Below, one piece after another: positions 7,074 to 64,000 of a stretch of 64,000 nucleotides of DNA (the first letter of the stretch is position 1; each line of letters opens with the position of its first letter). A program made the translations under genes and the position numbers. The stretch spans positions 31,752 to 95,751 of the forward strand of contig NZ_JBAPVS010000142.1 of NCBI RefSeq assembly GCF_049283275.1, read 5' to 3'. The DNA comes from Caulobacter sp. GTDB lineage: Bacteria; Pseudomonadota; Alphaproteobacteria; Caulobacterales; Caulobacteraceae. The notes beneath the pieces are model-generated. The model had not been told where the DNA came from, ran no database searches, and saw nothing but the letters and a program-made list of their open reading frames with translations.

Positions 7074-7079
7074 AGGGCG

Positions 7080-8383: not shown

Positions 8384-8520
8384 CGGCCAAGGCGATCGAG
8401 TTGGTAGCGCCCCTGCCCATCTGTCCAGATTGCCGGCGCGGGATTCGGATTGTGCGCCCTCTTCCCATCAGACCCTGCTCGGCATCGCGGCAGGCTCTCG
8501 CAACCTGGCGCAGACGCGCC

Positions 8521-10138: not shown

Positions 10139-10196
10139 GGGCAGAGGCTCTCCAGCGTGTCGTTTCGGTTCGGTTCGGTCTCCCTGTCGGGAGCAA

Positions 10197-11477: not shown

Positions 11478-11485
11478 TTTTGCTT

Positions 11486-11875: not shown

Positions 11876-11883
11876 CCGCACGG

Positions 11884-13422
<1,539 letters not shown>

Positions 13423-14460
13423 CTAACCGACAATCGTCTCGGGGTTGGGAACGCCCATGCGGGAGATCACAACCAAACCATCGCCCGGTCGGATGACGTC
13501 GTTGGCGCCGGGCCGCAGAGCGCCGCCCTCGCGGCGATCGATGCGAACCACCAGCAGGCCGCCTCCCCGCCGCTCGAACTCGCCCACGGTGATCTGACGC
13601 CCGCCGAACGCGGCGGGCGCGACGATCACGCCCAGCTCGAGGCCCATGCTGGTAAGCGACGCGGCGCTGCCGGCCTCGTCGGTGACGGCGCCTTGCAGAT
13701 ACTCCGCCAGCTTTGGGAACAGGATCAGCTCGGCGATCCGCTCGGCGCCGATGTGGGTTGGCAGGATCACCTTGTCGGCGCCCGCCTGGATCAACTTGCG
13801 CTCGGTGGACGGCCTCTCGCCGCGGGCGATGATCTCCAGTCCGGCGTTGAGGCTTCGCGCCGACAGCGTGATGAACACGTTGGCCGCGTCGTCGGGCAGG
13901 ACGCTGGCCAACACCCGGGCGCGCTCCACGTGGACGGCGCGCAGCACGTCCTCGTCGGTCGCATCGGCATGGCGGCACAGATAACCCAGTTCGCGGGCCT
14001 CCTGGCAGCGCTCCGCCTCTCGCTCGATGACGACGAAGGTCTCACCCGCCATGGACAGGTCCGCGGCCAGCATGAGGCCGATCCGGCCAAATCCGCAGAT
14101 GATGATGTGGCCGTCGAGGCGTTCGATATCGCGTTCCACGCGCTTTCCAAAAAACTGTTCCAGCTGCGACTGGGTGAGCGCCTGCACGAGCGCGCCGGTG
14201 ACCATGATCACACCCGTGCACCCAAACAGCATCGTGGCCATGGTGACGGTATGCAAGTAGTCGGTGTCGATGGGGCGAACTTCGCCATAACCGACGGTGA
14301 AGATGGTCAGGGTGACCATGTAGAGGGCGTCGTCGAAGGACCAACCCGCTTCCATGTAGGCGATCACCGCGACGAGGGCGATCATCAGCACGAACAGGAT
14401 CGCGATCAGGAGATTGCGGAACGGGCGCGCCGTCACCCCCTCGAGCACGCCCGCCCTCAC
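13423..14460 (-). CDS. potassium channel with RCK/TrkA-N domain
   Basis: Selectivity filter TVGYG between two TM helices; Rossmann motif IIICGFGRIG; ADATDEDVL. GTG overlaps the rlmE stop. Confidence 0.92.
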   Translation of the reverse strand: MRAGVLEGVTARPFRNLLIAILFVLMIALVAVIAYMEAGWSFDDALYMVTLTIFTVGYGEVRPIDTDYLHTVTMATMLFGCTGVIMVTGALVQALTQSQLEQFFGKRVERDIERLDGHIIICGFGRIGLMLAADLSMAGETFVVIEREAERCQEARELGYLCRHADATDEDVLRAVHVERARVLASVLPDDAANVFITLSARSLNAGLEIIARGERPSTERKLIQAGADKVILPTHIGAERIAELILFPKLAEYLQGAVTDEAGSAASLTSMGLELGVIVAPAAFGGRQITVGEFERRGGGLLVVRIDRREGGALRPGANDVIRPGDGLVVISRMGVPNPETIVG

Positions 14461-15164
14461 CGCCCCTTGAACCCCGTCGCCACCAGGAAGACCTCGGAGC
14501 TGTCGCTGCGGCTGGCCTTGGGCTTGAAGTGCACGACCTTGTCGAAGTGCTTTTTCAGCTGGCCGATCACCGCCGCGGTCTCGCCGCCCTGGAAGGCCTT
14601 GGCCACGAAAGCCCCCCCAGGCTTGAGCACCTCGATGGCGAAGTCAGCGCCGATCTCGATCAGGCCGACGATGCGCAGGTGGTCGGTCTCGCGATGGCCG
14701 ACCGTGTTGGGGGCCATGTCGGACATCACCAGGTCCGGCGCGCCGCCCAGCAGGTCCAGCATCTTGGGCGGACAGGCCGGGTCGGTGAAATCCATCTCCA
14801 GGATGTGGGCGGGCGCCACCGGATCGACCGGCAGCAGATCGACGCCGACGATGTCGGTCACGCCGCGTTCGGTGGCCATCTGCAGCCAGCCGCCCGGCGC
14901 GCAGCCCAGGTCGATGACGCGCGCCCCTTTCTTGAAGAAGCGATACTTGTCGTCGATCTCGCTGATCTTGAACGCCGCGCGGCTGCGATAGCCCAGGGCG
15001 CGAGCCTTGGCCGAGAACGGGTCGTTGATCTGCCGCTCCAGCCAGTGCTGCTGCGAGGGCGTGCGGCCAAAGGCGGTCTTCAGGCGCGCCGGCTTGGTGC
15101 GACCGCTGTCATTGCCGCCGGCCGGCGGCTTGACCATGCGCTTGCGGGGAGGTTCGTCGTTCAT
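14457..15164 (-). CDS. rlmE: 23S rRNA Um2552 methyltransferase RlmE (FtsJ/RrmJ)
   Basis: GYRSRAAFKISEI, DLGCAPGGW, SDMAPN, KPKASRSDSSE. Confidence 0.96.
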   Translation of the reverse strand: MNDEPPRKRMVKPPAGGNDSGRTKPARLKTAFGRTPSQQHWLERQINDPFSAKARALGYRSRAAFKISEIDDKYRFFKKGARVIDLGCAPGGWLQMATERGVTDIVGVDLLPVDPVAPAHILEMDFTDPACPPKMLDLLGGAPDLVMSDMAPNTVGHRETDHLRIVGLIEIGADFAIEVLKPGGAFVAKAFQGGETAAVIGQLKKHFDKVVHFKPKASRSDSSEVFLVATGFKGR

Positions 15165-16288
15165 GCGTTCACCGTCGAGGGGCGGGAAGCCCGACCAGAG
15201 CCGCCTCGCCGACGCCGGCGCGGCTTCTTCTGCTGATCGGACATCAAGGACATCAGAAGACCTTCTCTAAGCCCCCGATCGGCGACACGCACGCGAGAAC
15301 ACGGCCAAAGCTCCTGAACGGCCTGCAGGATCGCCGCCCCGGCCAGCACCAGATCGGCTCGGTCAGCCCCGATGCAAGGCTCCAGCGCCCGCTCCTTGGC
15401 GGTCAGGGTCAACAGCCGGTCGGCCGCCGCCTCGCACTCGTGACGCTGCATCCACAGGCCGTCGACGATGTTGCGATCGTAGCGCGGCAGCCCAAGGTGC
15501 AGGCCGGCCAGGCTGGTGATCGCGCCGGACGTGCCGACCATGTGGGCCCGGTCGTCCTCGAACAGGCGACGCATGGGCTCGGCGTGTGGGAAGGCGTCGA
15601 TGCGCGTCTTGACCGCGTCGACCATGGCCCGAAACCAGCCCTCCTCAACCCGCTCGCCCTCGGGAAAGCGCTCGGCCAGGGTGACCACGCCGATCGGGAT
15701 CGACAGCCAGGCCTTAATGGGCAGTTTCCAGGTCGCGAACTGGCGCGGCTTGCTGTCGAGCCCGTCGCCCTTGAGGTCCACCCAGGACAACTCGGTCGAA
15801 CCGCCGCCGACATCGACCACCAAGGCCGCCTCGGCGTTGCGGTCGAACAGGCTCATGCAGCCGGCCACCGACAGCTGGGCCTCTTCCTTGGGCGTGATGA
15901 TCTGCAGCCGCAGCCCCGTCTCCTCGGCGACGCGGCGGACGAAGTCAGGACCATTGGCCGCACCCCGGCAGGCCTGAGTGGCCACGGCCTTCACGCGCAC
16001 CACCTTGCGACGGCGGATCTTTTCAGCGCAGACCTTCAGGGCGGCCATGGAACGGTCCATGGCTTCGTCCGAAAGCTGTCCGGTCTGGGAAAGTCCCTCG
16101 CCCAGACGCACGATGCGGGAATAGGCCTCGACGACGCGGAATCCGCGCGGCGAAGGGGTCGCCACCAACAGGCGGCAGTTGTTCGTACCCAGGTCGAGCG
16201 CCGCATAGCACGACTGCTCGCCTGGCGGCCGGCGCCGGCCCGAGCCCGAAGGCTGAGGCGCGCCGGGCGCTCTCGGCGCCTCCGACAT
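15161..16288 (-). CDS. Ppx/GppA-family phosphatase
   Basis: AALDLGTNNCRL, VRLGEG, VATQACR, DVGGGSTE, DRGLREG. Confidence 0.93.
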   Translation of the reverse strand: MSEAPRAPGAPQPSGSGRRRPPGEQSCYAALDLGTNNCRLLVATPSPRGFRVVEAYSRIVRLGEGLSQTGQLSDEAMDRSMAALKVCAEKIRRRKVVRVKAVATQACRGAANGPDFVRRVAEETGLRLQIITPKEEAQLSVAGCMSLFDRNAEAALVVDVGGGSTELSWVDLKGDGLDSKPRQFATWKLPIKAWLSIPIGVVTLAERFPEGERVEEGWFRAMVDAVKTRIDAFPHAEPMRRLFEDDRAHMVGTSGAITSLAGLHLGLPRYDRNIVDGLWMQRHECEAAADRLLTLTAKERALEPCIGADRADLVLAGAAILQAVQELWPCSRVRVADRGLREGLLMSLMSDQQKKPRRRRRGGSGRASRPSTVNA

Positions 16289-16449
16289 GGTCGTTCCACC
16301 TTGTCTCGCAGGCGATTCGCACCGAACCGCCTCACTTCGAGAGCGAGCATAGCGGTCGGATTCCCCCGCCGAAAGGCCTCGCCTTGTCATCCGGTCACGG
16401 AACTCTACGTTCAGATTCCAGTCAGGAGACTCGGTGTAGATTGCCGGGC

Positions 16450-16779
16450 ATGAACTCGAGACTCGCCAAATTCGCGATCGGCCAAGTGGTCAAACACCGG
16501 ATCTTCCCCTTCCGGGGCGTGGTGTTCGACGTCGACCCCGTGTTCGCCAACACCGAGGAATGGTGGAACTCCATTCCCGAGGACATCCGGCCGACCAAGG
16601 ACCAGCCGTTCTACCACCTGCTGGCCGAGAACGACGACAACACCTATGTCGCCTATGTCTCCGAGCAGAACCTGCTGGCCGACGAAACCGGCGAGCCGGT
16701 CGGCCACCCGCAAGCGGCGGTGATCTTCGAGAGCTTCGATCACGGCGCCTACAAGCTTCGCCCCCGGATTTCGCACTAG
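16450..16779 (+). CDS. hspQ: heat shock protein HspQ
   Basis: KFAIGQVVKHRIFPFRGVVFDVDP...DQPFYHLLAEN...AYVSEQNL. Confidence 0.92.
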   Translation: MNSRLAKFAIGQVVKHRIFPFRGVVFDVDPVFANTEEWWNSIPEDIRPTKDQPFYHLLAENDDNTYVAYVSEQNLLADETGEPVGHPQAAVIFESFDHGAYKLRPRISH

Positions 16780-16801
16780 GCGCAAGCTCTCTCCGAGAGA
16801 T

Positions 16802-16846
16802 CCCGGTTCTCACGCAAAATCCGAACGGAATTTGCCACGAACCGGG
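16802..16846. promoter_or_regulatory. long imperfect inverted repeat upstream of phhA
   Basis: CCCGGTTC-tcac-GCAAAATCCG-aa-CGGAATTTGC-cac-GAACCGGG. Confidence 0.45.
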
Positions 16847-16860
16847 CGTAACGTCGTCTG

Positions 16861-17742
16861 ATGAGCGCAGACGGTTTTAGCAGCGGCCCTCCGCCCGGCG
16901 CGGCCGCCGATTGGACGATCGATCAGGGCTGGGAAAACTATGCCCAGGCCGAGCATGATGTCTGGATCACCCTTTACGAACGCCAGACCGCCCTGTTGCC
17001 GGGCCGGGCCTGCGACGAGTTCCTGCGCGGGCTCGACGCTCTGGATTTGCATCGCTCGGGCATTCCCGATTTCAAGCGGATCAACGAAGAGCTTCAGCGC
17101 CTGACCGGCTGGAGCGTGGTGGCCGTGCCCGGGTTGGTGCCCGACGACGTGTTCTTCGACCATCTGGCCAACCGCCGCTTCCCGGCGGGCCAGTTCATCC
17201 GCAAGCCGCATGAACTGGACTACCTGCAGGAACCCGACATCTTCCACGATGTATTCGGCCACGTGCCGATGCTGACGGACCCGACCTTCGCAGACTACAT
17301 GCAGGCCTATGGCCAGGGCGGCCAGCGGGCTCTGGGCCTGGGGCGGCTGGCTAACCTGGCCCGCCTCTACTGGTACACGGTCGAGTTCGGCCTGTTGGAG
17401 ACCAAGGCGGGCCCGCGAATCTACGGGGCCGGCATCGTCTCCTCGCGCACGGAGTCGATCTTCGCCCTCGACGATCCCTCCCCCAACCGCATCGGCTTCG
17501 ACCTGGAGCGGGTGATGCGCACGCCCTACCGGATCGACGACTTCCAGCAGGTTTATTTCGTCATCCCCTCGATCCAGACGCTGCAGGAGGTGACCTTGCG
17601 CGACTTCGGAGCGTTATACGACCGCCTGGCCGGCGCCAGCGACCTCGGCATCGCCGAGATCACCAGCGCCGACCGGGTGATCACCGCGGGCAGCCAGGCC
17701 TATGCGAAGGCCGGTGGCCGACTTGCCTCGGCGGGCGGCTGA
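16861..17742 (+). CDS. phhA: phenylalanine 4-monooxygenase
   Basis: EPDIFHDVFGHVPML (Fe His ligands), LARLYWYTVEFGL, YGAGIVSS, YRIDDFQQVYFVI. Confidence 0.97.
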   Translation: MSADGFSSGPPPGAAADWTIDQGWENYAQAEHDVWITLYERQTALLPGRACDEFLRGLDALDLHRSGIPDFKRINEELQRLTGWSVVAVPGLVPDDVFFDHLANRRFPAGQFIRKPHELDYLQEPDIFHDVFGHVPMLTDPTFADYMQAYGQGGQRALGLGRLANLARLYWYTVEFGLLETKAGPRIYGAGIVSSRTESIFALDDPSPNRIGFDLERVMRTPYRIDDFQQVYFVIPSIQTLQEVTLRDFGALYDRLAGASDLGIAEITSADRVITAGSQAYAKAGGRLASAGG

Positions 17743-18911
17743 CCTTTCAGGCCGAACAGCATCCGCACGCCCGGAACGCGCCGGACGATCTCGTAGGTCG
17801 CGAAGCAGCCGGCGAAGGTCAGAACGATCAGGATCGCGGCCTCGAGGGCCTGAGGCAGGCCCAGCTTGGCCAGATGGTGGGCGGCGACCACGATCAGGGT
17901 CTGATGCACCAAATAGAACGGGAAGACACCCAGGGTCAGATAGCGCAACGCCGGCCCGCCGCGATTCAGACGCCTGGCGCCGAAACCCAAGATGGCGGCG
18001 ATCGCGCACCAGGTGTCGGTCGCATAGACGAAGCGCATCGCGAACCGCAGGGCTTCAGGCGGAGCGGCATTCTCGGCCCGGTAAATCCAGGCATAGCTCG
18101 CCCAAGCCACATAGGCCGCCACGGCCAGGCTTAGTGCGGGCCAGCGCGCGGCGATCAAGCGTTCGCGCAGGACCTCGGACTTGGCCAGGCCGAAGCCGAT
18201 GAGGAACGCCGAGAACGACACCGCATGCACGTAGTAGTCGCCGACCAAGGCGTGGGTTTCGCCATAGCGCGGATAGAGCCAGGCGCGGATCAGGCCCAGG
18301 AAAACGATCGGCCACAGGATGAGCCCAGGCCCGCTCAACACGCGCTCGGCGCCGGCCTGGATATAAACGCCTGATCGCTTCCAGAGCAGCAGCAGTCCGG
18401 CCAGCGCCAGGGTGTAGACCAGCAAATAGGCCACGAACCACATGTGGTTCCAGGTCGGCGTGACCAGACACCCATCCGGACCGCACCAGTGGCCCGACGC
18501 CGTCACATAGCGGATCCAGAAGTTGTCGAGGATCGAGGCCGGCGCGCCCGGATGGGCCGTCACGTACTCGACGATCTGGTAGTAGGACTGCGGCGGCACG
18601 ATCACGAACATCGCAAACAGCAGCGGCGGGGCCAGACGGCCGATCCGGGCGCCAGTCAGCTTGGCGACCGGAACCTTGTCGGCCATGAACCGCGTCGCCG
18701 CGCCCGAGACCAGGAACAGCAGGGTCAGGCGCCACGGATTGGTCAGCATCATCAGCGGTTCCAGCGCTTCGACGGGATGCGGCGACTTCACGTGCCAGTC
18801 CCAGGGCACATAGAACATGCCGACGTGGTACAGGATCAGCAGGAAGAACGCGCCGACCCGAATCCAGTCGAGGTCGTATCGGCGGTCAGGGATCGAAGCG
18901 GTCGAAAGCAT
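17700..18911 (-). CDS. acyltransferase-3 family membrane protein (OpgC/MdoC-like)
   Basis: RRYDLDWIRV...LILYH, PWRLTLLFLVSG, HMWFVAYL, FPFYLVHQT; about 10 TM segments. Confidence 0.88.
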   Translation of the reverse strand: MLSTASIPDRRYDLDWIRVGAFFLLILYHVGMFYVPWDWHVKSPHPVEALEPLMMLTNPWRLTLLFLVSGAATRFMADKVPVAKLTGARIGRLAPPLLFAMFVIVPPQSYYQIVEYVTAHPGAPASILDNFWIRYVTASGHWCGPDGCLVTPTWNHMWFVAYLLVYTLALAGLLLLWKRSGVYIQAGAERVLSGPGLILWPIVFLGLIRAWLYPRYGETHALVGDYYVHAVSFSAFLIGFGLAKSEVLRERLIAARWPALSLAVAAYVAWASYAWIYRAENAAPPEALRFAMRFVYATDTWCAIAAILGFGARRLNRGGPALRYLTLGVFPFYLVHQTLIVVAAHHLAKLGLPQALEAAILIVLTFAGCFATYEIVRRVPGVRMLFGLKGQPPAEASRPPAFA

Positions 18912-18981
18912 GACAGGGCGTCCGGCTTGAAAAACGATGCGAACGTCGTGGCCCGCACCGCCGCCCGAGGCCAAGCGCCTG

Positions 18982-19033
18982 GGGACCAGCGGCCGCCGGC
19001 AGGGACGAGCGGAAAAGCGTCCGGGACCAGCGG
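18982..19033. repeat. three phased 11-bp direct repeats GGGAC(C/G)AGCGG
   Basis: Copies at 18982, 19002 and 19023 (20 and 21 bp period) between the divergent acyltransferase and LytTR genes. Confidence 0.8.
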
Positions 19034-19046
19034 CGCGCTTTTCGGG

Positions 19047-19847
19047 ATGAACGGCGAAGAGCGGCAGGGCATCGGACGCGCCTGGCTGCTGGGCGCCTCT
19101 CTGATCTCGTGCATCTCCGTGGTCAACGTCCTGACCATCCGCCACGACGCGCCGCATTTCGGCACGCTGGCCCCTGCCATTTGGGAAGGCAGCAGCGCGC
19201 TGGTGACCGTGGCGATCTTCATGATCCCCGCCGCGGTCGCTCTGTGGACCACGCGGACAGCACCGCGCTGGTGGCGGGCCCTTCCCGTTCACCTTGTGGC
19301 GGTGGTTCTTTACTCGATGCTGCACGTCGCCGGCTTCGTGGCGTTGCGAAAGCTGGCCTACTGGACCTTGATGGACGGCCCCTACGAGTTTGGGCCGCTG
19401 TCCTCGGAGTTCCCCTACGAATTCCGCAAGGACCTGATGGCCTATGGCCTGGCTTCGATCATCTACTACCTGTCCTTAAGGCGCAGCGCGCGTGAGGCCG
19501 TGCTCGCCCAGACGGCGTCGGCGCCCGCCAGCTTCGACATCCGCGACGGCGCGCGCCTGGTGCGCGTTCCTGTCTCCGAGATCCTGGCCGTGCGCTCGGC
19601 CGGCAACTATGCCGAGTTCCTGCTGGCCGACGGCCGGCGGCCCCTGATGCGTTCGTCGCTCAGCGCGCTCGAGACCCAGATGGTCAAGCACGGCTTCCTG
19701 CGCACCCATCGCTCCTGGCTGGTCAATCCGGCACGGGTGACCGGTCTGCGCCCTGAGGGCTCGGGCGACTATGCGGTCGAGTTGGGCGCGGTCGAGGTCC
19801 CGCTGTCGCGGCGCTTTCCCCAGACCCTGTCCGCGTTGCGCGGCTAG
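19047..19847 (+). CDS. membrane-anchored LytTR-family transcriptional regulator
   Basis: Four hydrophobic N-terminal helices, then a LytTR domain (VSEILAVRSAGNYAE...FLRTHRSWLVN). No receiver domain; start could be a little further upstream. Confidence 0.9.
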   Translation: MNGEERQGIGRAWLLGASLISCISVVNVLTIRHDAPHFGTLAPAIWEGSSALVTVAIFMIPAAVALWTTRTAPRWWRALPVHLVAVVLYSMLHVAGFVALRKLAYWTLMDGPYEFGPLSSEFPYEFRKDLMAYGLASIIYYLSLRRSAREAVLAQTASAPASFDIRDGARLVRVPVSEILAVRSAGNYAEFLLADGRRPLMRSSLSALETQMVKHGFLRTHRSWLVNPARVTGLRPEGSGDYAVELGAVEVPLSRRFPQTLSALRG

Positions 19848-54314: not shown

Positions 54315-54988
54315 TGCCGACCCTATTCGTCACCGGAACCGGCACCGACATCGGCAAGACCTATGTCAGTTGCGCCCTGATCCGCGCCCTGAAGGCCCGG
54401 GGCGCGGTCGTCGACGCGTTCAAGCCCGTGGTCAGTGGCTTTGATCCCAAGGACGCGGCCGGCAGCGACCCGGCCCGGCTGGCCTCGGCCCTTGGCGATC
54501 CCGGCGCGCTATTCCGCATCGCCCCGCGCCGCTACCGCGCCCCGCTGTCGCCCAACATCGCCGCGCGGCTAGAGGGGCAGACCCTGGTCCTGGGCGACAT
54601 GGTCATCGACGCGGTGGCCCGCGCCGCCGAGATCCGCAACGGCCTGCTGCTGGTCGAGGGGGCCGGCGGGGTGATGTCCCCGCTGACCGACAGCGAGACC
54701 AATCTGGACATGATCACGGCTCTCGGCGCGCCGGTGCTTCTGGTGGCCGGTTCGCATCTCGGCACGATCAGCCACGTCCTGACCGCTCTGGTCGCCCTGC
54801 GCGCCGTCAAGACCGAGATCGCGGCGGTGGTGATGAGCGAAAGCCTCGACGCTCCCGACCTGGCCCAGACCGCCCAGGCCTTGGCGTCGTTCCTGGACGG
54901 AGCGCCATTGTTCCTCGCGCCGCGCGCGGAATCCTGGGACGCTGGAGCCCTTGCCGACCACCTGCTGACGAAGACCCGCGCGCCATGA
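54314..54988 (+). CDS. bioD: dethiobiotin synthase
   Basis: FVTGTGTDIGKT, FKPVVSG, LVEGAGG. Confidence 0.96.
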   Translation: MPTLFVTGTGTDIGKTYVSCALIRALKARGAVVDAFKPVVSGFDPKDAAGSDPARLASALGDPGALFRIAPRRYRAPLSPNIAARLEGQTLVLGDMVIDAVARAAEIRNGLLLVEGAGGVMSPLTDSETNLDMITALGAPVLLVAGSHLGTISHVLTALVALRAVKTEIAAVVMSESLDAPDLAQTAQALASFLDGAPLFLAPRAESWDAGALADHLLTKTRAP

Positions 54989-55878
54989 CCCTTCGTATCG
55001 CCATGATCGGCCTGGGCGACATCGCCCGGAAGGCCTACCTGCCCGTGCTGGGCCCGCGCGCGGACGTCCAGCTGACCTTCGTCACCCGCAACAGGCAAGC
55101 CTTAGAGACGCTAGGCGCGGCTTGGCGGGTCGAGCGACTGCACGCCGAGCTGGACACGGCCTTGGCCGAAGGGCTGGACGGGGCCTTCGTTCACGCCGCG
55201 ACCGAGGCGCACCCCGCTATTGTTCAACGCCTTCTGGAGGCCGGAGTGCCGGTCCTGGTCGACAAACCGATCGCCGATAACGCCGCCGACAGCGAAGCGT
55301 TGGTTGATCTGGCCGAGACGCGCGGCATATCCCTAATGGCTGGCTTCAACCGGCGTTACGCCCCGGCCTATCGCGACGCCGCCGCCCTGAACCTGCCGCT
55401 AGTAGTGTTGCAGAAGAACCGCCCAGGACCGCTGGACGACCTCCGCCGGGCGGTGTTCGACGATTATATCCACGTGGTCGACACGATCCGGTTCCTGGCT
55501 CCGGGCGCTGACCAAGTCGCCGTTCGTGGTCGCGCGCGCGATGGCCGGCTCGAACACGTGATGCTGTCGTTGTCGGGTGACGGCCGGGATGCCCTGGGGA
55601 TCATGAACAGGGCCAGCGGCGCCAGCGAGGAGATCCTGGAGGTCTCGGGCGAAGGCCAAAAACGCAAGGTCGTCGATATCGACCAGGTCCTCGACCAGGG
55701 CGCGGCCGAGGTCCTGACTCGACGCGGAAATTGGACCTCGGTCGGCCGTCAGCGCGGCTTCGAAGCGATGTGCGAGCACTTCCTGAGCGCCGTGCGCGAC
55801 GGCCGACGACTGTCGGCGCTGGACGCGCTGGCGACGCATCGACTGTGCGAGACGGTGGTGCGCGAGTTGAGCGCCTAG
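54985..55878 (+). CDS. Gfo/Idh/MocA-family oxidoreductase (MviM/YceM-like)
   Basis: IAMIGLGDIARKAYLP, VDKPIA, GFNRRYAP, DDYIHVVD. Confidence 0.9.
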   Translation: MTLRIAMIGLGDIARKAYLPVLGPRADVQLTFVTRNRQALETLGAAWRVERLHAELDTALAEGLDGAFVHAATEAHPAIVQRLLEAGVPVLVDKPIADNAADSEALVDLAETRGISLMAGFNRRYAPAYRDAAALNLPLVVLQKNRPGPLDDLRRAVFDDYIHVVDTIRFLAPGADQVAVRGRARDGRLEHVMLSLSGDGRDALGIMNRASGASEEILEVSGEGQKRKVVDIDQVLDQGAAEVLTRRGNWTSVGRQRGFEAMCEHFLSAVRDGRRLSALDALATHRLCETVVRELSA

Positions 55879-56687
55879 GCCGTCTTCCTCCACGCCGTGG
55901 GCGACAGCCCGAACGCGCCACGGAAGGTCGCGTTGAAGTGCGAGATGTCGTTAAAACCGATCTCCAGCGCGATGCGGGTAATCGGCTCGGCCGTGTCGGT
56001 CAACCGGTCGGCGGCGGCGCGCAGGCGGGCGCCGATCAGGTACTGGCGCGGGCTTTCGCCGGTCACGGCCCGGAACAGACGGATAAAGTGGAAGCGGCTG
56101 ACCTGGCCCATGGCGGCCAGGGCATCCAGCCCACAAGGCTCCGCATAGGCGACGTCCAGATGTCGAACCACCTCGCGGATGCGGCGGCGCTCGACCACCG
56201 TCGGCGCCACTCTCCGCAGGCGACGTCCCAGGGTCAGGGCGCGAGCCGTCAGGTTGATCACCTCCTCCTCGCCCAGGCGCAGCCCGCCCGCCGCGCGGCG
56301 CACGGCCCCATAAAGCGGCGCGGTCTCGCGCGAAGGACCTAGGGCCGAGACCGCGAAGCCGGGCTCGTCCAGGCCGCAGTCGTTGGCCACCTCGGCCAGC
56401 AGGTCCGGATGCAGGGCGATCACCGCCCGGCGATTGCCATGGGCATCCAGGTGGCGGCAGTCGAAGGCCTCGCCGGTGTTGCCCAACAGGATGGCGCCCG
56501 GCCTCGCCCGCGTGCGCCCATGGCGACCGCCATAGTCGAAGGTTCCCGCCACCACCGCGCCGATGGCAGGACCGGCGTAGCACTTCTCGATCGCGGCCGA
56601 GGCGTCGGTGGCGCAGCGCGCCTCGCCGGCCCCGTACAGCGGTGAACGGGCGGGCAAGGCGGGGCCGTGGGTCTCGACGCGGAACAT
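55875..56687 (-). CDS. AraC-family transcriptional regulator
   Basis: SRFHFIRLFRAVTGESPRQY and IGFNDISHFNATFRGAFGLSPTAWR double HTH. Confidence 0.93.
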   Translation of the reverse strand: MFRVETHGPALPARSPLYGAGEARCATDASAAIEKCYAGPAIGAVVAGTFDYGGRHGRTRARPGAILLGNTGEAFDCRHLDAHGNRRAVIALHPDLLAEVANDCGLDEPGFAVSALGPSRETAPLYGAVRRAAGGLRLGEEEVINLTARALTLGRRLRRVAPTVVERRRIREVVRHLDVAYAEPCGLDALAAMGQVSRFHFIRLFRAVTGESPRQYLIGARLRAAADRLTDTAEPITRIALEIGFNDISHFNATFRGAFGLSPTAWRKTA

Positions 56688-56804
56688 GCGAGCCTCCGTC
56701 TTATCAACACGCCCATAGAACCCGGCTCGGCGTCGCCGCGCAACAAACCCCAAGTCAGTCGACGGACGGTGAGCCAACCTGCCCTTCTGCGGATGGGAGG
56801 GTTC

Positions 56805-57572
56805 ATGAACCGCGACGGCGTTCCCTACGGCCTCGGCGCGACGGCGCTGGGGATCATCGGTCTGGTCTTCGGCGACTTCGCCCTGCAATGGCAACCGGTC
56901 CCCAAGGGCCTGCCTGAGCACCATGCGCTGGCCCTGGCCAGCGCCATGGTCATGGTGATGCTAGCCCTTGGCGTCCTGTGGTCGCGCACCGCCCGCCCCG
57001 CTTCGGCGAGCCTGGCCGTGGTCTATCTGGGCTGGGTCGCTCTGCATGGCCCCGAGACCGCCGAGGCGCCCGCCAGCGTCGCCTCATGGCTGGGCGTGGC
57101 CGAGACCCTGTCACTGGCGGCCGGCGGCCTGGCGCTGTTCGCAATGTCGACCGCCCCGCCCAGCGACCGCCTGCGGTTGGCGGCGCGGCTGGTCTATGGC
57201 CTCTGCCCGCTGGTGTTCGGCCTCAGCCACTTCGCCTATGCCGACTTCACCGCCAAGATGGTCCCCGGCTGGATCCCCTATCCGCTGTTCTGGGCCTATG
57301 CGACAGGCGTCGGCCATCTGGCGGCGGGACTGGCAATCCTGTTCGGCGTCTCGCCCCGGCTGGCGGCGACCCTGCTGACGGCGATGATGGGGTGCTTTGT
57401 GGTGATGCTGCACATCCCGCGCGTGATGGCCGCGCCCGGCAGCCATCTGGAATGGACGATGACGGCGGTCGCCCTGTCACTGACTGGCGCGGCTTGGGCT
57501 ATGCGGCAGTCCTTGCCATCTTCAGAACCGTCAGGCGCTTTGGCGTTCGACCGGGTCGGGCTCGACGGCTAG
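56805..57572 (+). CDS. DoxX-like multi-TM membrane protein
   Basis: GGGAGG RBS; FGLSHF...MVPGWIP...WAYATGVGHLAAG motif; about 7 TM helices. Confidence 0.7.
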   Translation: MNRDGVPYGLGATALGIIGLVFGDFALQWQPVPKGLPEHHALALASAMVMVMLALGVLWSRTARPASASLAVVYLGWVALHGPETAEAPASVASWLGVAETLSLAAGGLALFAMSTAPPSDRLRLAARLVYGLCPLVFGLSHFAYADFTAKMVPGWIPYPLFWAYATGVGHLAAGLAILFGVSPRLAATLLTAMMGCFVVMLHIPRVMAAPGSHLEWTMTAVALSLTGAAWAMRQSLPSSEPSGALAFDRVGLDG

Positions 57573-58607
57573 GACCGGCGCCGGTGCGCAGGCGCGCCGG
57601 AACAGCTTGCCCAGCGCCACGAACAGGCTCTTCTCCTCGACCTGATGATAGGGGGAGGTTTCCGCCAACTGCGCCGACAACCGCGCGTGGGCCTTGCCCA
57701 GATTATGGTACGGCAGGCGCGGCAGCAGGTGGTGCAGGGCGTGATAGCGCAGACCCACCGGGGCCCACAGGAACGGCAACAGAGCCGGCGGCGGGACATT
57801 GACCGAGTCGAGGAACTGCGCCTCGAAACTCATCTTCTCGCCGTCGTTCTCCCAGTAGTGGGCCGCCAGGGTGCGCAGTTGGTTGACGAAGGTCGCCAGC
57901 GAGAACAGGACGAACCACGTCACGACGAAGCGCACCGGCACGAGGCCGATGATCGTCGCCGCCGCCACGCTCCAGCACCACAACCAACACCCCAGCTCCT
58001 GGGCCAACCAGTCGGGGCGCGTCCTATCATTATCCTCGCGCACGAAGTCGGGATTGATCACCAAGGCCGACAGCTTGGCCCTGACCAGTCGCCGCACGCT
58101 GGGGATCACGAATGACAGCGGAACCAGAATGCCCGAGCGCAGGATCACGCCCAGCGGGGCCAGCAACGAGATCAGGGCGAACATCGCCAGCTTGAACGGC
58201 GAGTAGCGGCCCAACGGCAGATATTCCGGGTCACGCGCGGTGCCGAAGCGGTCCTTGGCGTGGTGCAGATTGTGTACGCCCTCGTACATCATCGACGGGG
58301 TCATCAGCGGCACGCCGATCAACAGGTTCCAACCCAGTCGGAAGCCCGGCACGTCCTTGGGGCGAAGGTGGCTGATCTCGTGGATAAAGCTGAGCCCCCT
58401 GTAGAGGGCCAGCAGGCCGACCAAGCCGCCGCCGGCGACCACGATCAGATTATGGGCGGTGGCGGCCAGCCACAGACCGCCCCAAGCCGACGTCGCTGTC
58501 AGCACCAGATCAACCCAATAGGTCATGCGATCAGGCGTCGTCAGATCAGCGGTCAGGCCGTGGGCCTGGCGCACCAGACCGGTCTCGTCTTTCTGGGATG
58601 ATCCCAC
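57531..58607 (-). CDS. membrane fatty acid desaturase family protein
   Basis: Three His boxes HEISH, HNLHH, HALHH; GTG start. Confidence 0.9.
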   Translation of the reverse strand: MGSSQKDETGLVRQAHGLTADLTTPDRMTYWVDLVLTATSAWGGLWLAATAHNLIVVAGGGLVGLLALYRGLSFIHEISHLRPKDVPGFRLGWNLLIGVPLMTPSMMYEGVHNLHHAKDRFGTARDPEYLPLGRYSPFKLAMFALISLLAPLGVILRSGILVPLSFVIPSVRRLVRAKLSALVINPDFVREDNDRTRPDWLAQELGCWLWCWSVAAATIIGLVPVRFVVTWFVLFSLATFVNQLRTLAAHYWENDGEKMSFEAQFLDSVNVPPPALLPFLWAPVGLRYHALHHLLPRLPYHNLGKAHARLSAQLAETSPYHQVEEKSLFVALGKLFRRACAPAPVLAVEPDPVERQSA

Positions 58608-58873
58608 GGTCTAAATCCCCGATTCCGCCTTGAGGGCCCCGACGTGGCGCCGCGGCTCTCGAAATTCAATGCCCGCACGACAGAAGACGCTCATGGACAT
58701 AGATCAAAACGACCGGTGTCGAAACGCTGACCGTTCTTGGCAGATCGTGCGGCGCTCGACTGAAACGGCTCCTACAGTCAAAGACCGTCTCGATGTCGCG
58801 CCGATGTCGACGATCGCGTCGAAATCGAAAAGGCTAACCGCCGCTTCGCACTATCGAGACCAACGACACAGAT

Positions 58874-58886
58874 ATTGTACAACAAT
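58874..58886. promoter_or_regulatory. putative GntR/FadR operator copy 1 (ATTGTACAACAAT)
   Basis: Imperfect palindrome about 117 nt upstream of gntR; matches the copies at 62525 and 62786. Confidence 0.6.
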
Positions 58887-59003
58887 CCTGACCCATAGCG
58901 CGACAAAATGCTTGCCGCGTTGTTCGGTGCGAAATAGGAATGAAGAGGTACGGAGTTGGTAAGCTCTCGGTGAAGCGCAACGAGTCCGTATGAGGATACG
59001 TCT

Positions 59004-59783
59004 TTGGCAGCCACAGTGAAGACATCGAGCAAGTCCAAGGGGAAGGAAGCGGCTGCAAGCGCCGCTCCGACCGCCGACGATCTGGCTCAGGCTTTGCGGG
59101 CCCGCATACAGAAAAGCGAGCTCGCGCCCGGCGAATGGCTTCGCGAAGTCAAGCTTTGCAGTGAGTTTGGCGTGGGACGCTCGATCGTGCGCCGGGCCCT
59201 GCGAACCCTCGCCGACGACGGCTTGATCGAGATCGAAGAAAACCGCGGCGCACGCGTATCCGCCACCACGGTCGAGGAGGTCTTCGATCTCTACGAGGTT
59301 CGCGCTGCGCTCTACGGCATGGCGGCGCGCTTTGCCTGCCTGCGGGGATCGGACTCCATGATCCGCAGCATGATGGCCAAGATCGATCGCTTGCTCAGCG
59401 ACGCCGAGAGCAAGGCGCCGGCCGAGCAGATCATCGAAGTCAGTGAATCGATCTTCAGCGACATGATCGCGTGCGCCAGCGCCGACGCCCAGCGCATGAT
59501 CGAGAGCGTGCGCCGCAAGACACGCTTCCACTTTTCCTATGCGGCCCTGGCGATCAACACCAATGCTCCGGGACCTTATGAGCATTGGCGGCACGTTCGC
59601 GCCGCATTGGCCGAACGCGACGCGGATAGGGCCAGCCAGTCGGCGCGCGACATCCTCTACTTCATGCAGGGCGAGGTCGCGCGCATCATGCTCGCCCGCG
59701 GCCCGCGGTTGATATCGGAGGCTGCAACCACGCCGAACGCGAAGCCGAAGCGCCGCTCGCCCCCAAAACGGAAACCAAGTTGA
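59004..59783 (+). CDS. GntR-family (FadR/FCD) transcriptional regulator
   Basis: GAGGA RBS with TTG start; wHTH (APGEWLRE...FGVGRSIVRRAL..L..DGLIEIEENRGARV) plus FCD-like domain. Confidence 0.92.
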   Translation: MAATVKTSSKSKGKEAAASAAPTADDLAQALRARIQKSELAPGEWLREVKLCSEFGVGRSIVRRALRTLADDGLIEIEENRGARVSATTVEEVFDLYEVRAALYGMAARFACLRGSDSMIRSMMAKIDRLLSDAESKAPAEQIIEVSESIFSDMIACASADAQRMIESVRRKTRFHFSYAALAINTNAPGPYEHWRHVRAALAERDADRASQSARDILYFMQGEVARIMLARGPRLISEAATTPNAKPKRRSPPKRKPS

Positions 59784-60829
59784 TGCAAGCTGCGCTAGTC
59801 CGCATGATCGCGGCGGCGGCGGTCGCCACCCTTGCCATCGCCCCTAGCGCCTCGGCGGGCCCGGCTCCTTCCGCGATCGGCAAGACCGCACCCTCGCCTG
59901 ACATGACGGACCTGCTCAACTACGTGCGCAATCACGGCGGCACCGGGTTCATTGTCATCCAGGACGGCAAGCTGCTCATCGACGAGACCTGGCCCGCGCC
60001 GGACGACGACCAGATGTTCGCCAACTTCGTCTACGGCCGCGCCGGCGATGGCGCGCTGTTCGAGGATGTCGCCTCGCAACAGAAGAGCTTCGTCGCGGTT
60101 CTGGCGGCGATCGCGATCGACAAGGGATTGATCGATCCCGAGAAGCCCGTTTCCACCTATCTCGGCCAGGGCTGGTCCAAGGCTTCGCCCGAACAGGAAG
60201 CGGCCATCCGGGTCATCGACATTTTGACAATGAGCTCTGGTCTCGACGAGAAGTTCGGCTATGTCGCGCCGCCGAGGACCGTCTTCTTCTACAACACGCC
60301 GGTCTATGCGATCAGCAAGCGCATCGTCTCGGCGGCCGCCGGCCAACCGCTGGACGCGATCACCCATGACTGGCTGACGGCGCCGACCGGGATGAAGGAC
60401 ACGGCCTGGCGCAAGCGCCCGGCCGTCCTGGCCTCGATCGGCAACGATACGGGCCTGGTCACGACGCCGCGCGACGTCGCGCGCTTCGGACTCATGGTGC
60501 TGCATGGCGGGGTGGCGCAAAACGGCGCGCGCGTGGTCTCACAGGCCCAACTCGACGCCCTGTTCACCCGATCCGCCACCAACCCAGCTTACGGCCGCCT
60601 TTGGTGGCTGAACGGCGGCAGCTACACGATACGGGCGGCGGCGGGACGCAGCGAGGGTCAGCTGATCCCGGCGGCTCCATCTGATCTTGTGGGCGCGCTC
60701 GGCGCGTTCGATCGCCGGCTCTATATCGTGCCCAGCCGCAAGTTGGTGGTCGTGCGCATGGGCGCGGCCACGAACGACCGAGAATTCGATCAGCAGCTGT
60801 GGCTGCGACTGATGAAGGTGATCGGCTGA
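59783..60829 (+). CDS. secreted serine hydrolase, beta-lactamase/PBP-like family
   Basis: TGATG overlap with gntR; signal peptide; SxxK (SQQK), FYNT, YGRLWW. Confidence 0.85.
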   Translation: MQAALVRMIAAAAVATLAIAPSASAGPAPSAIGKTAPSPDMTDLLNYVRNHGGTGFIVIQDGKLLIDETWPAPDDDQMFANFVYGRAGDGALFEDVASQQKSFVAVLAAIAIDKGLIDPEKPVSTYLGQGWSKASPEQEAAIRVIDILTMSSGLDEKFGYVAPPRTVFFYNTPVYAISKRIVSAAAGQPLDAITHDWLTAPTGMKDTAWRKRPAVLASIGNDTGLVTTPRDVARFGLMVLHGGVAQNGARVVSQAQLDALFTRSATNPAYGRLWWLNGGSYTIRAAAGRSEGQLIPAAPSDLVGALGAFDRRLYIVPSRKLVVVRMGAATNDREFDQQLWLRLMKVIG

Positions 60830-60989
60830 TCACGCCCGCGCGATCGACCACGACCAGCTTTGAACTGGAGAGACCGAGCGGCGATTTGGCTTCGCCTTGC
60901 GACGCTGAGCTCGGCGACGCCCGCCGGCGGAGTTTGCCTATCCGTTTCTGACGGCTCCCATCAGAAACGGATAGGTTCCAGGGTCGGCC

Positions 60990-62171
60990 TTAGACGCGCT
61001 CGACGATCAGGGCGATCCCCTGCCCTCCGCCGATGCACATGGTGGCCAGGCCGTAACGCCCCTGGACGCGCTGCAACTCGTGCACCAGCTTGGCGGCGAT
61101 GATCGCGCCGGTCGCTCCGACCGGGTGACCCAACGAGATGCCGCTTCCGTTGGGATTGGTCTTGGCCGGATCAAAGCCGAGCGCATCCGCGACCGCGCAA
61201 GCCTGCGAGGCAAAGGCCTCGTTCGACTCGATCACATCCATGTCGGACACCGATAGACCGGCCCGGGCCAGCGCCGCCTCGACGGCGGGGACTGGACCCA
61301 TGCCCATGAAATTGGGGTCCACGCCCGCATGACCATAGGCGACGATCCGCGCCATGGGCTCGAGCCCCTGGCGCGCAATGGCGGCCTCGTTCGCCAGGAC
61401 GAGGGCGGCGGCGGCGTCGTTGATGCCCGAAGCGTTGCCGGCCGTGACCGTCCCGCCCTCCCGAAAGATCGTACGAAGCTTCGCAAGGTCGGCGGCCTGG
61501 GTGTCGCCGCGCACATGTTCGTCCACCTCGAACGTCCTGACGGCCTTGCCCGCCTTCACCTCGACGGGAACGATCTGGGACGTGAAACGCCCCTCCGTGA
61601 TCGCCTGGGCGGCACGCCGATGGCTTTCGGCGGCATAGGCGTCCTGACGCTCGCGACCCACGCCATGCCGCTCGGCGACATTTTCAGCGGTCACCCCCAT
61701 GAGGCCGCCGCCGAACGGGTCGGTCAGCGCCCCGTTTAGGCCGTCGATGAGCATCGCGTCGCCCATCTTCTGCCCCCAACGCGTCGCCGGGGCGAAATAG
61801 GGCGCACGGCTCATCACTTCGGCGCCGCCCGCGACCGCCACCTCGGCGTCTCCCAGCATGAGCATCTGCGCCGCCGAGACGACGGCCTGAAGTCCGGATC
61901 CGCACAAGCGGTTGAGCGTCATGGCGGGGACGCTCTGCGACAGTCCCGCCTCCAGCGTCGCGATGCGCGCCAGATAAGCGTCGCGCGGTCCGGTGGGGAT
62001 CACCTGGCCGAAGACGACATGACCAACTGACGACGGATCGATCCGGCCGGTCTCAAGCACGTCGCGCGTGACCAAGGCGGCAAGCTCACTGGGGTTCCTG
62101 TCTTTAAGCGAACCGCCGAATGCGCCGATCGCCGTGCGGCGAGCGGCGACGATGAACACCGGGGCCGTCAT
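60990..62171 (-). CDS. bktB: beta-ketothiolase (acetyl-CoA C-acyltransferase), BktB type
   Basis: PRDAYLARIA, NRLCGSGLQA, NEAFA, GHPVGATG, CIGGGQG. Confidence 0.88.
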   Translation of the reverse strand: MTAPVFIVAARRTAIGAFGGSLKDRNPSELAALVTRDVLETGRIDPSSVGHVVFGQVIPTGPRDAYLARIATLEAGLSQSVPAMTLNRLCGSGLQAVVSAAQMLMLGDAEVAVAGGAEVMSRAPYFAPATRWGQKMGDAMLIDGLNGALTDPFGGGLMGVTAENVAERHGVGRERQDAYAAESHRRAAQAITEGRFTSQIVPVEVKAGKAVRTFEVDEHVRGDTQAADLAKLRTIFREGGTVTAGNASGINDAAAALVLANEAAIARQGLEPMARIVAYGHAGVDPNFMGMGPVPAVEAALARAGLSVSDMDVIESNEAFASQACAVADALGFDPAKTNPNGSGISLGHPVGATGAIIAAKLVHELQRVQGRYGLATMCIGGGQGIALIVERV

Positions 62172-62272
62172 GCCTTCACCCCGCACTGGCTCAACACCAT
62201 GGCGAGCGCCGCGTCCAGGCCGCCGCCTGCGCCCGTGACGATCGCCACGCGGCTCAATGGATCGATCCCCAT
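62168..62272 (-). pseudogene. internally deleted SDR oxidoreductase (34 codons)
   Basis: GAAAGGA RBS, then MGIDPLSRVAIVTGAGGGL (SDR TGxxxG start) fused to DAALAMVLSQCGVKA*. The stop overlaps the thiolase ATG (ATGA). Confidence 0.75.
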
Positions 62273-62524
62273 ATTCCGTTCCTTTCGATGGTCATCAGTA
62301 TTGGGCGTCCGCCTTGGGAGAGGCGCTGGACGGTTGCGGCGCGAAGCTGCGAAGGGGCCGCCGGTCTGGGCCATCACGACCCCTGAGACCCAGCCGGGAA
62401 AACCACGGCTGACGAGCAGGCAAGCAAACCGACCAAGCGTTTTAGTCTCTCCCCGAAATCTTGGCGCCGGTGTTTTCCGTGGCGGTTGAAGCGGACCATC
62501 CTCCGGCCTCACCTTCCCGTCAAC

Positions 62525-62537
62525 ATTGCACGACAAT
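62525..62537 (-). promoter_or_regulatory. putative GntR operator copy 2 (ATTGCACGACAAT) abutting -35 TTGACG
   Basis: Minus strand reads ATTGTCGTGCAAT-g-TTGACG toward the SDR/thiolase genes. Confidence 0.65.
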
Positions 62538-62785
62538 ACATGTCGAATTGAGTTACCAGAGGCCTTATGAGCGCGCAGGCGACCAAGGCCTGCGGGCGCC
62601 GCGGTCGCGCGCAGGATGGACTATCTGAGCGATGGACCGGCCGTGCACGACCCTCTTGCGCGCGGGCGGCTGGAATCAGGTCCACGTCCCGGCGCCGACC
62701 CGCCAGGTCGCCACAGGACCTTCAAATGCCCTGTGCCCCTTCTTCAATTTCTGAGACCCATCCGAAGAAGAACAATTGCGCTAGT

Positions 62786-62807
62786 TTTGTCGTACAATCT
62801 ATTGACA
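62786..62807 (+). promoter_or_regulatory. putative GntR operator copy 3 (TTTGTCGTACAAT) plus -35 TTGACA
   Basis: TTTGTCGTACAAT-cta-TTGACA, 60 nt upstream of the MFS start. Confidence 0.65.
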
Positions 62808-62867
62808 CCCCTCGTGCGTGAATGGTGTCCTCCCTCCAAGCGTCGTCCAGAACGCCAGGGAGAGCGA

Positions 62868-64000
62868 ATGTCAGCCTCGGATGTTTCCGCCAACAAACCG
62901 AACCTCAAGGTTGCGGTGATGGCTTCGGCGGGCGCCGCGGTGGAATGGTACGACTTCTTCATCTACGGGACGGCCGCCGCGTTGGTCTTTCCCCATCTGT
63001 TTTTTCCGGCTGACCTCCCCCCTTTCGTGGCGCAGATCGCCTCCTTCAGCACTTTTGCGGTGGGCTTCATCGCTCGGCCGGTCGGCGGGATGCTCTTTGG
63101 ACATTTTGGCGACATCCACGGCCGCAAACGCGTGCTGGTCGCGGCGATGCTGATCATGGGCCTTTCGACCACGCTGATCGGCCTGTTGCCGAGCTATGCC
63201 AGCATTGGCGCTTGGGCGCCGCTGCTGCTGGTGCTGCTGCGTTTCGCCCAAGGCCTGGCGGTCGGCGGACAATGGGGCGGCGCGGCGCTGCTGGCGATCG
63301 AGAGCGCGCCGGCCGATCGGCGCGGTTTCTACGGCAGCTTCGTGCAGGTCGGCGTGCCTCTCGGCGTGGTGCTCGCCAATTCGGTTTTCCTGGTGGTCAG
63401 CGCCCTCAGCACCGAAAGCGCTTTCATGGCCTGGGGCTGGCGAATCGGTTTCGTGCTGAGCGTTCTGCTGATCGTGATCGCCATTGTCGTCCACTTCGGC
63501 GTTACCGAATCCGTGGCCGACAGCGTTTCCGAAGCGACCGCGGAACGGCGCCGGTCACCGCTGGCGGAGGCGGCGCGAGACCATTGGCGTCAGATCCTGC
63601 TCGCCGGCGGCGCGTTCGTCGCCAACAACACCTGCTTCTACATCGCCATCACCTATGCGGTGGCCTACGGCACGACGCGGGTGGGGATCGATCGCGACCT
63701 GCTTCTGTTCGCGGTCATGGCGGCCAACGTCCTGATGATCCCGGCTCTGCTGGGCTGCGGCGCCCTGTCCGACCGATACGGCCGACGTGGTATTTTCCTG
63801 ATCGGCGCATTCCTGTCGGGGCTCTGGGCGTTCGCGGTGTTCCCGCTGCTGGAGAACGCCTCTCCCCTCGCCGTCCTGGCCGCGATCGCCGTCCAACTGC
63901 TGTTCGTCAGCATGATGTATGGACCGCAGGCGGCGCTGTTCGCCGAACTCTTTCCCAGGTCGGTGCGCTATTCCGGCGCGTCGCTCGGCTATCAGATCGG
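62868..64000 (+). CDS. MFS transporter, MHS (ShiA/ProP-like) family, 3'-truncated by window
   Basis: GGGAGAG RBS; MSASDVS...AVEWYDFFIYGTAAALVF...ARPVGGMLFGHFGDIHGRK...GGQWGGA...ELFPRSVRYSGASLGYQI. Not in the ORF track because it runs off the window. Confidence 0.93.
   Translation, partial: MSASDVSANKPNLKVAVMASAGAAVEWYDFFIYGTAAALVFPHLFFPADLPPFVAQIASFSTFAVGFIARPVGGMLFGHFGDIHGRKRVLVAAMLIMGLSTTLIGLLPSYASIGAWAPLLLVLLRFAQGLAVGGQWGGAALLAIESAPADRRGFYGSFVQVGVPLGVVLANSVFLVVSALSTESAFMAWGWRIGFVLSVLLIVIAIVVHFGVTESVADSVSEATAERRRSPLAEAARDHWRQILLAGGAFVANNTCFYIAITYAVAYGTTRVGIDRDLLLFAVMAANVLMIPALLGCGALSDRYGRRGIFLIGAFLSGLWAFAVFPLLENASPLAVLAAIAVQLLFVSMMYGPQAALFAELFPRSVRYSGASLGYQI

Follow-up and report, generated by a model that had tools for sequence, protein, structure and literature searches.

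Genes and probable operator sites of the locus

The DNA considered here is a window of 64,000 nucleotides from Caulobacter sp. (NCBI RefSeq assembly GCF_049283275.1, 4.30 Mb in 376 contigs, 67.7% G+C), namely positions 31752–95751 of contig NZ_JBAPVS010000142.1 (C142); coordinates are those of the window unless a contig or another locus is named. Its distal end encodes a regulator of the GntR family, and the 13-bp word ATTGTAC(G/A)ACAAT, present in three copies close to this gene, is very probably the operator of that regulator. Judged from the sequence, it would define a purely local regulon of three transcription units, held under a repression that is relieved by an effector. The genes and sites concerned are listed below (MFS, major facilitator superfamily; Tat, twin-arginine translocation).

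57531–58607, minus strand: gene of the fatty-acid-desaturase family, divergent from gntR
58874–58886, no strand assigned: operator O1 (site A), ATTGTACAACAAT, the arms of which (ATTGT/ACAAT) form a perfect inverted repeat
59004–59783, plus strand: gntR, 259 aa, with GntR and FCD domains (FadR subfamily) and a TTG start after GAGGA
59783–60829, plus strand: serine hydrolase of beta-lactamase fold, N-terminal signal peptide, start codon ATG overlapping the gntR stop (TGATG)
60990–62171, minus strand: beta-ketothiolase of the BktB subfamily, 393 aa from the ATG at 62171, with Thiolase_N and Thiolase_C domains
62525–62537, read on the minus strand as ATTGTCGTGCAAT: operator site B, ATTGCACGACAAT, 1 nt upstream of a -35 box
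62786–62798, plus strand: operator site C, TTTGTCGTACAAT (ATTGTACGACAAA on the opposite strand), separated by 3 nt from the MFS -35 box that follows it
62868–64000, running on to the window-equivalent position 64163, plus strand: MHS-type MFS transporter, 431 aa, with MFS_1 and Sugar_tr matches
Contig C142 95960–97258 (window-equivalent 64209–65507), outside the window and after the MFS gene: 432-aa Tat-signal protein of PA/M28 fold, followed by ssb on the opposite strand

The regulator combines a GntR domain (PF00392, residues 24–85, 60.9 bits against a cut-off of 27) with an FCD domain (PF07729, residues 95–218, 33.4 bits against a cut-off of 24.3), and its relatives in the PDB are the GntR/FCD regulators 3ihu and 7xp0. 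None of the NCBIfam equivalogs PhnR, CsiR, NanR, PdhR, GlcC and LldR was reached, the best being TIGR03338 (phnR_burk) with 71.3 bits against the 271.5 required. The operator consensus of the FadR subfamily is TKGTN2-3ACMA (PMC7641319), and the TTGT-ACG-ACAA core of the sites fits it. Both the domain content and this match bear out the original prediction, an earlier model-made reading of the same letters, in which the TTGT...ACAA dyad was ascribed to a FadR-subfamily GntR. Among the other products, the thiolase passed its subfamily model (NF006552, 624.4 bits against 565) and missed the equivalog NF042999 (601.9 bits against 725); it is 78–88% identical to the thiolases of the related loci described below. 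The transporter matched the MHS model TIGR00883 best, with 385 bits against 443 over model positions 1–362, as scored on the 377-aa fragment cut by the end of the window.

All three 13-mers were found at the positions originally given for them, and they are the sole matches to WTTGYACRACAAW in the 4.3-Mb genome, each of them intergenic and no more than 4 kb away from gntR. Sites B and C share an intergenic region of 595 nt. A scan of the window with WTTGTYGTRCAAT, with at most one mismatch allowed, gave exactly three matches, compared to 0.13 expected, and none of 100 shuffles reached three. With up to two mismatches to ATTGTACGACAAT the number of matches rose to eight genome-wide, and the only ones both intergenic and within one mismatch were again A, B and C. 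Random abundance throughout the genome, which had been named as a finding that would speak against the operator, was accordingly not observed: there are three copies in 4.3 Mb, all at this locus. These within-genome statistics are inflated, because these three sites themselves supplied the consensus, and the independent test is the conservation of the word in other genomes. A fourth match to the 11-nt core, TTGTCGTGCAA at C76:10330, sits within an 821-aa open reading frame (ORF) and was taken as a chance occurrence. No RNA family of Rfam was found in positions 56000–64000.

Conservation of the probable operator and decay of the window's copy

Orthologues of the GntR protein, with 67–85% identity over the best segment, occur in 27 species-level genomes/loci (numbered with the prefix L) from two classes of proteobacteria. 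The carriers belong to Caulobacter, Brevundimonas, Sphingomonas, Sphingopyxis, Parasphingorhabdus, Stakelama, Niveispirillum and the gammaproteobacterial Steroidobacteraceae. Within the genus of the window's genome the regulator is rare: one of 36 genomes has a homologue, at 56% identity, and that genome holds no match to the motif. In essentially all 27 loci ATTGTAC(A/G)ACAAT precedes the gntR match at a distance of 110–235 nt, and its 13 core positions are near-invariant whereas the flanks are not conserved. The scan of the genome and of the orthologous loci, which had been proposed as a check, turned out in favour of the operator on both counts, and the loss of the motif upstream of orthologues, another finding that had been named as speaking against it, was not seen.

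In total, 46 sites with no more than one mismatch were counted in the 431 kb of the 27 loci, compared to 0.25 expected from first-order Markov random sequences; five sites apparently located inside ORFs are artefacts of longest-ORF gene calls. The genomes of 12 carriers gave 28 matches, mostly within the locus, and a single match for a reversed control pattern. In comparison, 36 genomes of the same genus gave 10 scattered matches and three for the controls, and none of the six that were inspected adjoined a regulon gene. Clusters of two or more sites were found solely in genomes that have the regulator.

The sites of the relatives fall into three classes of promoters. The first class is situated upstream of gntR, which is followed by the hydrolase, an optional type-B carboxylesterase and an acyl-coenzyme A (acyl-CoA) ligase. 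The second lies between the operon of the MFS and PA/M28-fold genes and a divergent gene for a TonB-dependent receptor, with one site per promoter. The third separates an operon of glutathione S-transferase (GST), a second MFS transporter, a short-chain dehydrogenase/reductase (SDR) and the thiolase from a divergent family VIII esterase. It had been predicted that one regulator controls the MFS transporter, the secreted hydrolase and an SDR-thiolase unit. This stands insofar as promoters of the same gene families carry the motif in the relatives, while the "SDR" itself is, in the window, a remnant of 34 codons. Moreover, two Sphingomonas (R-74633 and HITSZ_GF; L033:1956–6260 and L034) have a second locus with the same operator, flanked on one side by an operon that encodes two alpha/beta-hydrolases and an SCP-x-type thiolase and on the other by the gene of a secreted 364-aa GHSQG protein, for which no Pfam or PDB relative was found.

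Given these counts over two classes, the motif, the regulator and the targets travel together through several rearrangements. Isolated intergenic copies of ATTGTACGACAAA or TTTGTACGACAAA were also seen in same-genus genomes without the regulator (L039:4010, L040:4015 and L044:4016), in the vicinity of genes for a sugar-acid dehydratase, a GH51 arabinofuranosidase, an alpha-galactosidase and a LacI-type regulator. Such copies would be accommodated if the motif were bound by another factor with its gene elsewhere, for example LacI-type or another GntR paralogue, with its adjacency to gntR due to a shared neighbourhood. We regard this as very improbable, since the motif accompanies gntR in all 27 loci, the site always precedes that gene, multi-site clusters are confined to the genomes with the regulator, the word fits the FadR-subfamily consensus, and clustering of the neighbouring genes revealed no other regulator gene conserved in the 27 loci.

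Compared to its relatives, the locus of the window lacks the ligase, the second MFS transporter, GST, the family VIII esterase and the TonB receptor, and the following features were recognised between its genes.

60937–60975, no strand assigned: hairpin (inverted repeat I11; 18-nt arms, 94% complementary, 3-nt loop) at the point where the hydrolase and thiolase genes converge
62168–62272, minus strand: 34-codon remnant of an MFE-2-type SDR, MGIDPLSRVAIVTGAGGGL..., its stop overlapping the thiolase ATG (ATGA)
62367–62517, minus strand: leader derived from a TonB receptor, with a frameshifted signal-peptide remnant (LLACSS...GVVMAQ)

Alignment of the 34-codon ORF with the 296-aa SDR of L005, L006, L009 and L019 is confined to the first ~33 codons of the latter; the long ORF gave no Pfam match, and the remnant, although some 260 codons short, is still translationally coupled to the thiolase. 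Further upstream, positions 62540–62367 (minus strand) align with positions 4777–4948 of L006, which comprise the operator, the -35 box, the leader and the first codons of the TonB receptor; in the window the coding remnant is frameshifted and stops after GVVMAQ. About 93 nt between the two remnants (62274–62366) have no recognisable origin. The original prediction placed an SDR-thiolase promoter at site B. The site does face the thiolase, but the promoter is homologous to that of the TonB receptor and is not the native one of the thiolase operon. By its sequence, the window's locus reads as a reduced, decayed derivative of the regulon of its relatives, in which transcription of the thiolase appears to start at a TonB-receptor promoter that has been captured and to cross two pseudogene remnants. 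In this way it illustrates how an operator-promoter module can outlive the loss of its gene and be re-used for another. The hairpin is likely a bidirectional terminator; in the relatives its position is occupied by the acyl-CoA ligase gene.

Elsewhere in the genome the lost genes have only more distant paralogues, most of all in a cluster on contig C17 (~6400–19700) with a type-B carboxylesterase, a ligase (67% identity), an SDR (58%), a thiolase-like gene, an MFS transporter, a 225-aa regulator and a TonB receptor. The operator motif is absent from this cluster, presumably a sister pathway under another regulator.

Loss and shortening of several regulon genes, together with the position of site B on a captured promoter and a consensus drawn up afterwards from these very sites, could also mean that the three copies are without function, that is, either chance matches or what is left of duplicated promoter modules as the locus decays. 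This is the least probable of the readings considered. Three sites, all intergenic, stand against ~0.1 expected in the genome, the 13 positions have stayed near-invariant over large distances with the flanks randomised, and the regulator and four target genes (hydrolase, thiolase, MFS and PA/M28-fold) have retained intact reading frames.

Promoter geometry and probable mode of regulation

The promoter elements adjoining the operators, including a degenerate operator-like repeat (O2), are as follows.

58895–58907, plus strand: O2, ATAGCGCGACAAA, matching at 9 of 13 positions, with the right half-site CGACAAA intact
58912–58940, plus strand: putative gntR promoter, with -35 TTGCCG (58912–58917), a 17-nt spacer and -10 TAGGAA within GCGAAATAGGAAT (58929–58941)
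62518–62523, minus strand: -35 box TTGACG facing the thiolase; the homologous position of L006 has TTGACA
62802–62807, plus strand: -35 box TTGACA of the MFS-PA operon, kept beside the operator in orthologous promoters

Read along the transcribed strand, site B is ATTGTCGTGCAAT-g-TTGACG toward the thiolase and site C is TTTGTCGTACAAT-cta-TTGACA toward the MFS gene. Both thus have the same orientation relative to transcription, with gaps of 1 and 3 nt to the -35 box, exactly as predicted. The operator followed by 1–4 nt and TTGACA is also present upstream of the MFS orthologues in L006, L009, L014, L017, L019, L024 and L031. When 63 operator sites were drawn from the window and from L002–L029, L031, L033, L034 and L038, 41 of them read as ATTGTCGTACAAW, then 1–5 nt, then TTGAC(A/G/T), compared to a single one with TTGAC at the opposite end. 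The asymmetric centre of the operator (CGT) is in this way locked to the direction of the promoter, TTGAC lying beyond the ...CGTACAAW end.

At gntR itself, O2 begins 8 nt after O1 (21 bp from centre to centre) and ends 4 nt from the -35 box. We infer that it represents a fourth, degenerate operator site. A block GACAAA-N3-4-CTTGC is kept after O1 in most loci, and the sphingomonad loci possess a fuller second copy at O2, for example ATGGTTTGACAAA or ATTGTTGAATATT. The -35-like CTTGCC and the GCGAAATAGGAAT block of gntR keep the same spacing across the loci of Caulobacterales and Sphingomonadales. The O1 of sphingomonads is, in addition, directly adjacent to a TTGACA pointing toward a divergent TonB-receptor/MFS/PA operon. 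In the window this divergent partner has been swapped for an unrelated desaturase, and therefore O1 and O2 are best read as an autoregulatory pair. The third copy of the original prediction does lie between gntR and the desaturase; a role of the latter in the regulon, in turn, was rejected, because none of the 27 related loci has a desaturase, and for the same reason site A is best read as the autoregulatory site of gntR. Upstream of the desaturase are genes for an AraC-family regulator (55875–56924, minus strand) and a Gfo/Idh/MocA oxidoreductase (54985–55878), a segment in which no copy of the operator was seen. A second conserved block, TGTA(C/T)CACCA(C/T)A, is located 8 nt from the operator on the family VIII esterase side of the relatives' loci (L003 ~14100–14160, with equivalents in L005–L009, L011 and L019), and could be a promoter element or the site of another factor.

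The probable mode of action is repression by occlusion. A GntR dimer positioned 1–5 nt upstream of the TTGAC(A) -35 boxes would block RNA polymerase, and would leave the DNA once its FCD domain has bound a small effector of carboxylate or acyl type. Unit 1 would consist of gntR and the secreted beta-lactamase-fold hydrolase and be autoregulated through O1, joined by O2 abutting the -35 box; unit 2, of the BktB-type thiolase, read from the captured TonB-receptor promoter; and unit 3, of the MHS transporter and the Tat-exported PA/M28-fold protein. That this very GntR is the binding protein is inferred, and so are the sign of the regulation and the effector. Repression is favoured because of the consensus -35 boxes, the variable gap of 1–5 nt, the same layout at the gntR promoter and the habits of FCD regulators; a consensus -35 box combined with a variable gap is a better fit to occlusion than to face-specific activation.

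It seems unlikely, on the other hand, that the same GntR acts from the same sites as an activator or dual regulator, recruiting RNA polymerase when the effector is present. Such a mode would account for an operator centre near -45, just upstream of the -35 box, for the orientation locked to the promoter, as if one face or end of the protein contacted the polymerase, and for the lack of a good -10. FadR activates fabA from about -40, a precedent of this kind. However, a full-consensus TTGACA is unusual for activator-dependent promoters, and with a gap varying from 1 to 5 nt the angular position of the protein on the helix shifts by up to ~140 degrees. The promoter of gntR itself has the same layout, with negative autoregulation as the common case, and most FCD-type regulators of catabolic loci, AusR among them (PMC7641319), act as repressors.

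Several observations nevertheless weigh against repression through these operators. The fixed orientation of the asymmetric CGT centre is not expected for a symmetric dimer and stays unexplained. The operator centre near -45 and the fabA precedent, as aforementioned, count on the activator's side. The strong -35 boxes of the original prediction are consensus boxes indeed, but no E. coli-type -10 accompanies the TTGAC boxes, and a strict E. coli-type sigma-70 scan returned no full promoter, that of gntR included, so the promoter assignments are drawn from conservation. The locus is partly decayed, so the regulation may be vestigial. Finally, the isolated copies in L039, L040 and L044 may be operators of an unrelated factor, with similar words serving other factors.

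Possible function of the regulon and comparison with known systems

In the relatives, the larger regulon additionally includes the TonB receptor, the type-B carboxylesterase (family F7), the family VIII esterase, the acyl-CoA ligase, the SDR, GST and the second MFS transporter. The SDR is an MFE-2-type (3R)-hydroxyacyl-CoA dehydrogenase (2et6, E 3e-104), family F12 is a 3-hydroxyacyl-CoA dehydrogenase, and the ligase resembles DmdB/FadD (long-chain ligase). Their second hydrolase is a cytoplasmic family VIII esterase close to EH7 (PDB 7pp3, E 1e-114; PMC9795927). With such a set, a conjugate of the ester or amide type could be taken up and hydrolysed, and the product activated with CoA, oxidised as the (3R)-hydroxyacyl-CoA and thiolysed. 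Because many esterases, a ligase, a (3R)-dehydrogenase and a thiolase occur together, while acyl-CoA dehydrogenase and hydratase are lacking, the substrate might be guessed, tentatively, to be a (3R)-hydroxy acid conjugated as an ester or amide. Extended further, and likewise doubtful, is the idea that the regulon is an undescribed scavenging route for ester- or amide-linked conjugates of this type, for instance oligomers of polyhydroxyalkanoates or (R)-3-hydroxyacyl fragments of lipids, controlled by a GntR operator that is orientation-locked to the -35 box. This route would start with TonB-dependent uptake; esterases of the periplasm and cytoplasm would act next, then a CoA ligase, MFE-2-type oxidation and BktB thiolysis, with neither an acyl-CoA dehydrogenase nor a hydratase taking part. 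An aromatic substrate, to which the original prediction had also extended, found no support among the genes, those of the relatives pointing to esters and (3R)-hydroxyacyl-CoA. A compound of chlorogenate or ferulate type was weighed, as the MFS protein resembles a shikimate transporter, and was dropped for want of hydratase/lyase or ring-cleavage genes.

The closest known parallel in organisation is found in the FCD-type repressors of the FadR subfamily that control catabolic loci, such as AusR of Zobellia galactanivorans (PMC7641319). Shared with them are a winged-helix GntR domain joined to an all-helical FCD domain and a palindromic operator of TTGT-N3-ACAA type at several promoters of one catabolic locus, that of the regulator included; as with AusR, the locus has a TonB receptor and an MFS transporter. 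Different from these repressors are the targets, here esterases, thiolase and (3R)-hydroxyacyl-CoA enzymes, and the operator, which precedes the -35 box at close range and always points the same way, and does not cover the -10 or the start site. Other FCD-type repressors of catabolic loci are DgoR, LldR, PdhR and UxuR/ExuR of E. coli. FadR of E. coli is similar in belonging to the GntR family, in its connection to thiolase and acyl-CoA metabolism, in an acyl-type ligand and in its ability to act near -40. It has a C-terminal family of its own, FadR_C, and a 17-bp operator. In contrast, the regulator of the window carries an FCD domain, and its regulon is without fadE, fadB and fadL-type genes and rich in esterases.

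Literature searches with the operator words matched only unrelated primers, and keywords of the gene set gave nothing relevant. Overall, the regulon of the window is an uncharacterised local regulon of a FadR-subfamily GntR and of a well-known kind. It provides a solid and useful handle on the pathway, although not a surprising one, and leaves the knowledge of GntR regulators unchanged. What it supplies is a testable regulator-operator pair for an uncharacterised catabolic gene set with a patchy distribution in Caulobacterales, Sphingomonadales and Steroidobacteraceae, including the cultured carriers Brevundimonas lenta DSM 23960, B. naejangsanensis DSM 23858, Peristeroidobacter soli JW-3 and Sphingopyxis indica DS15; Caulobacter sp. 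UNC358MFTsu5.1 is a further one. With the operator as a marker, the extent of the regulon could be traced in any genome, which offers a way toward its substrate.

Two of the exported products deserve a closer description. The hydrolase, whose gene follows gntR in 25 loci, matches PF00144 with 83 bits, and its S-Q-Q-K motif (S99..K102) is invariant in 16 orthologues. Its fold family and the invariant S-x-x-K are shared with family VIII carboxylesterases and class-C beta-lactamase-like hydrolases (EH7, 7pp3; EstU1; EstB; NylB). Unlike these, the hydrolase bears only a remote likeness to any solved protein (E 3e-7), with PIB-1 and NylB as weak relatives in the PDB. The structure model was poor (predicted local distance difference test, pLDDT, 61), too poor for a fold search.

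The PA/M28-fold protein fell short of the Pfam gathering scores for both PA (18–21 bits against 23.9) and Peptidase_M28 (14–17 bits against 21.3). Its model (pLDDT 77), however, gave a Foldseek probability of 1.00 and TM scores of 0.64–0.69 to 2ek8 and 6hc6, the M28 aminopeptidases BSAP and PaAP. In a profile alignment to PaAP, the canonical di-zinc ligands (H-x-D, the bridging D and E-E) are replaced: TPRSG stands opposite AHLDS (His to Pro, Asp to Ser) and HEYE opposite AEEA. Because of this replacement a peptidase activity is uncertain, and the protein may be a neofunctionalised or non-peptidase member of the family. Other histidines and aspartates are invariant, namely H297, H323, H404, H407, H408, D412 and D413 (numbering of the L009 protein, L009:2457–3779), and a different metal site is possible.

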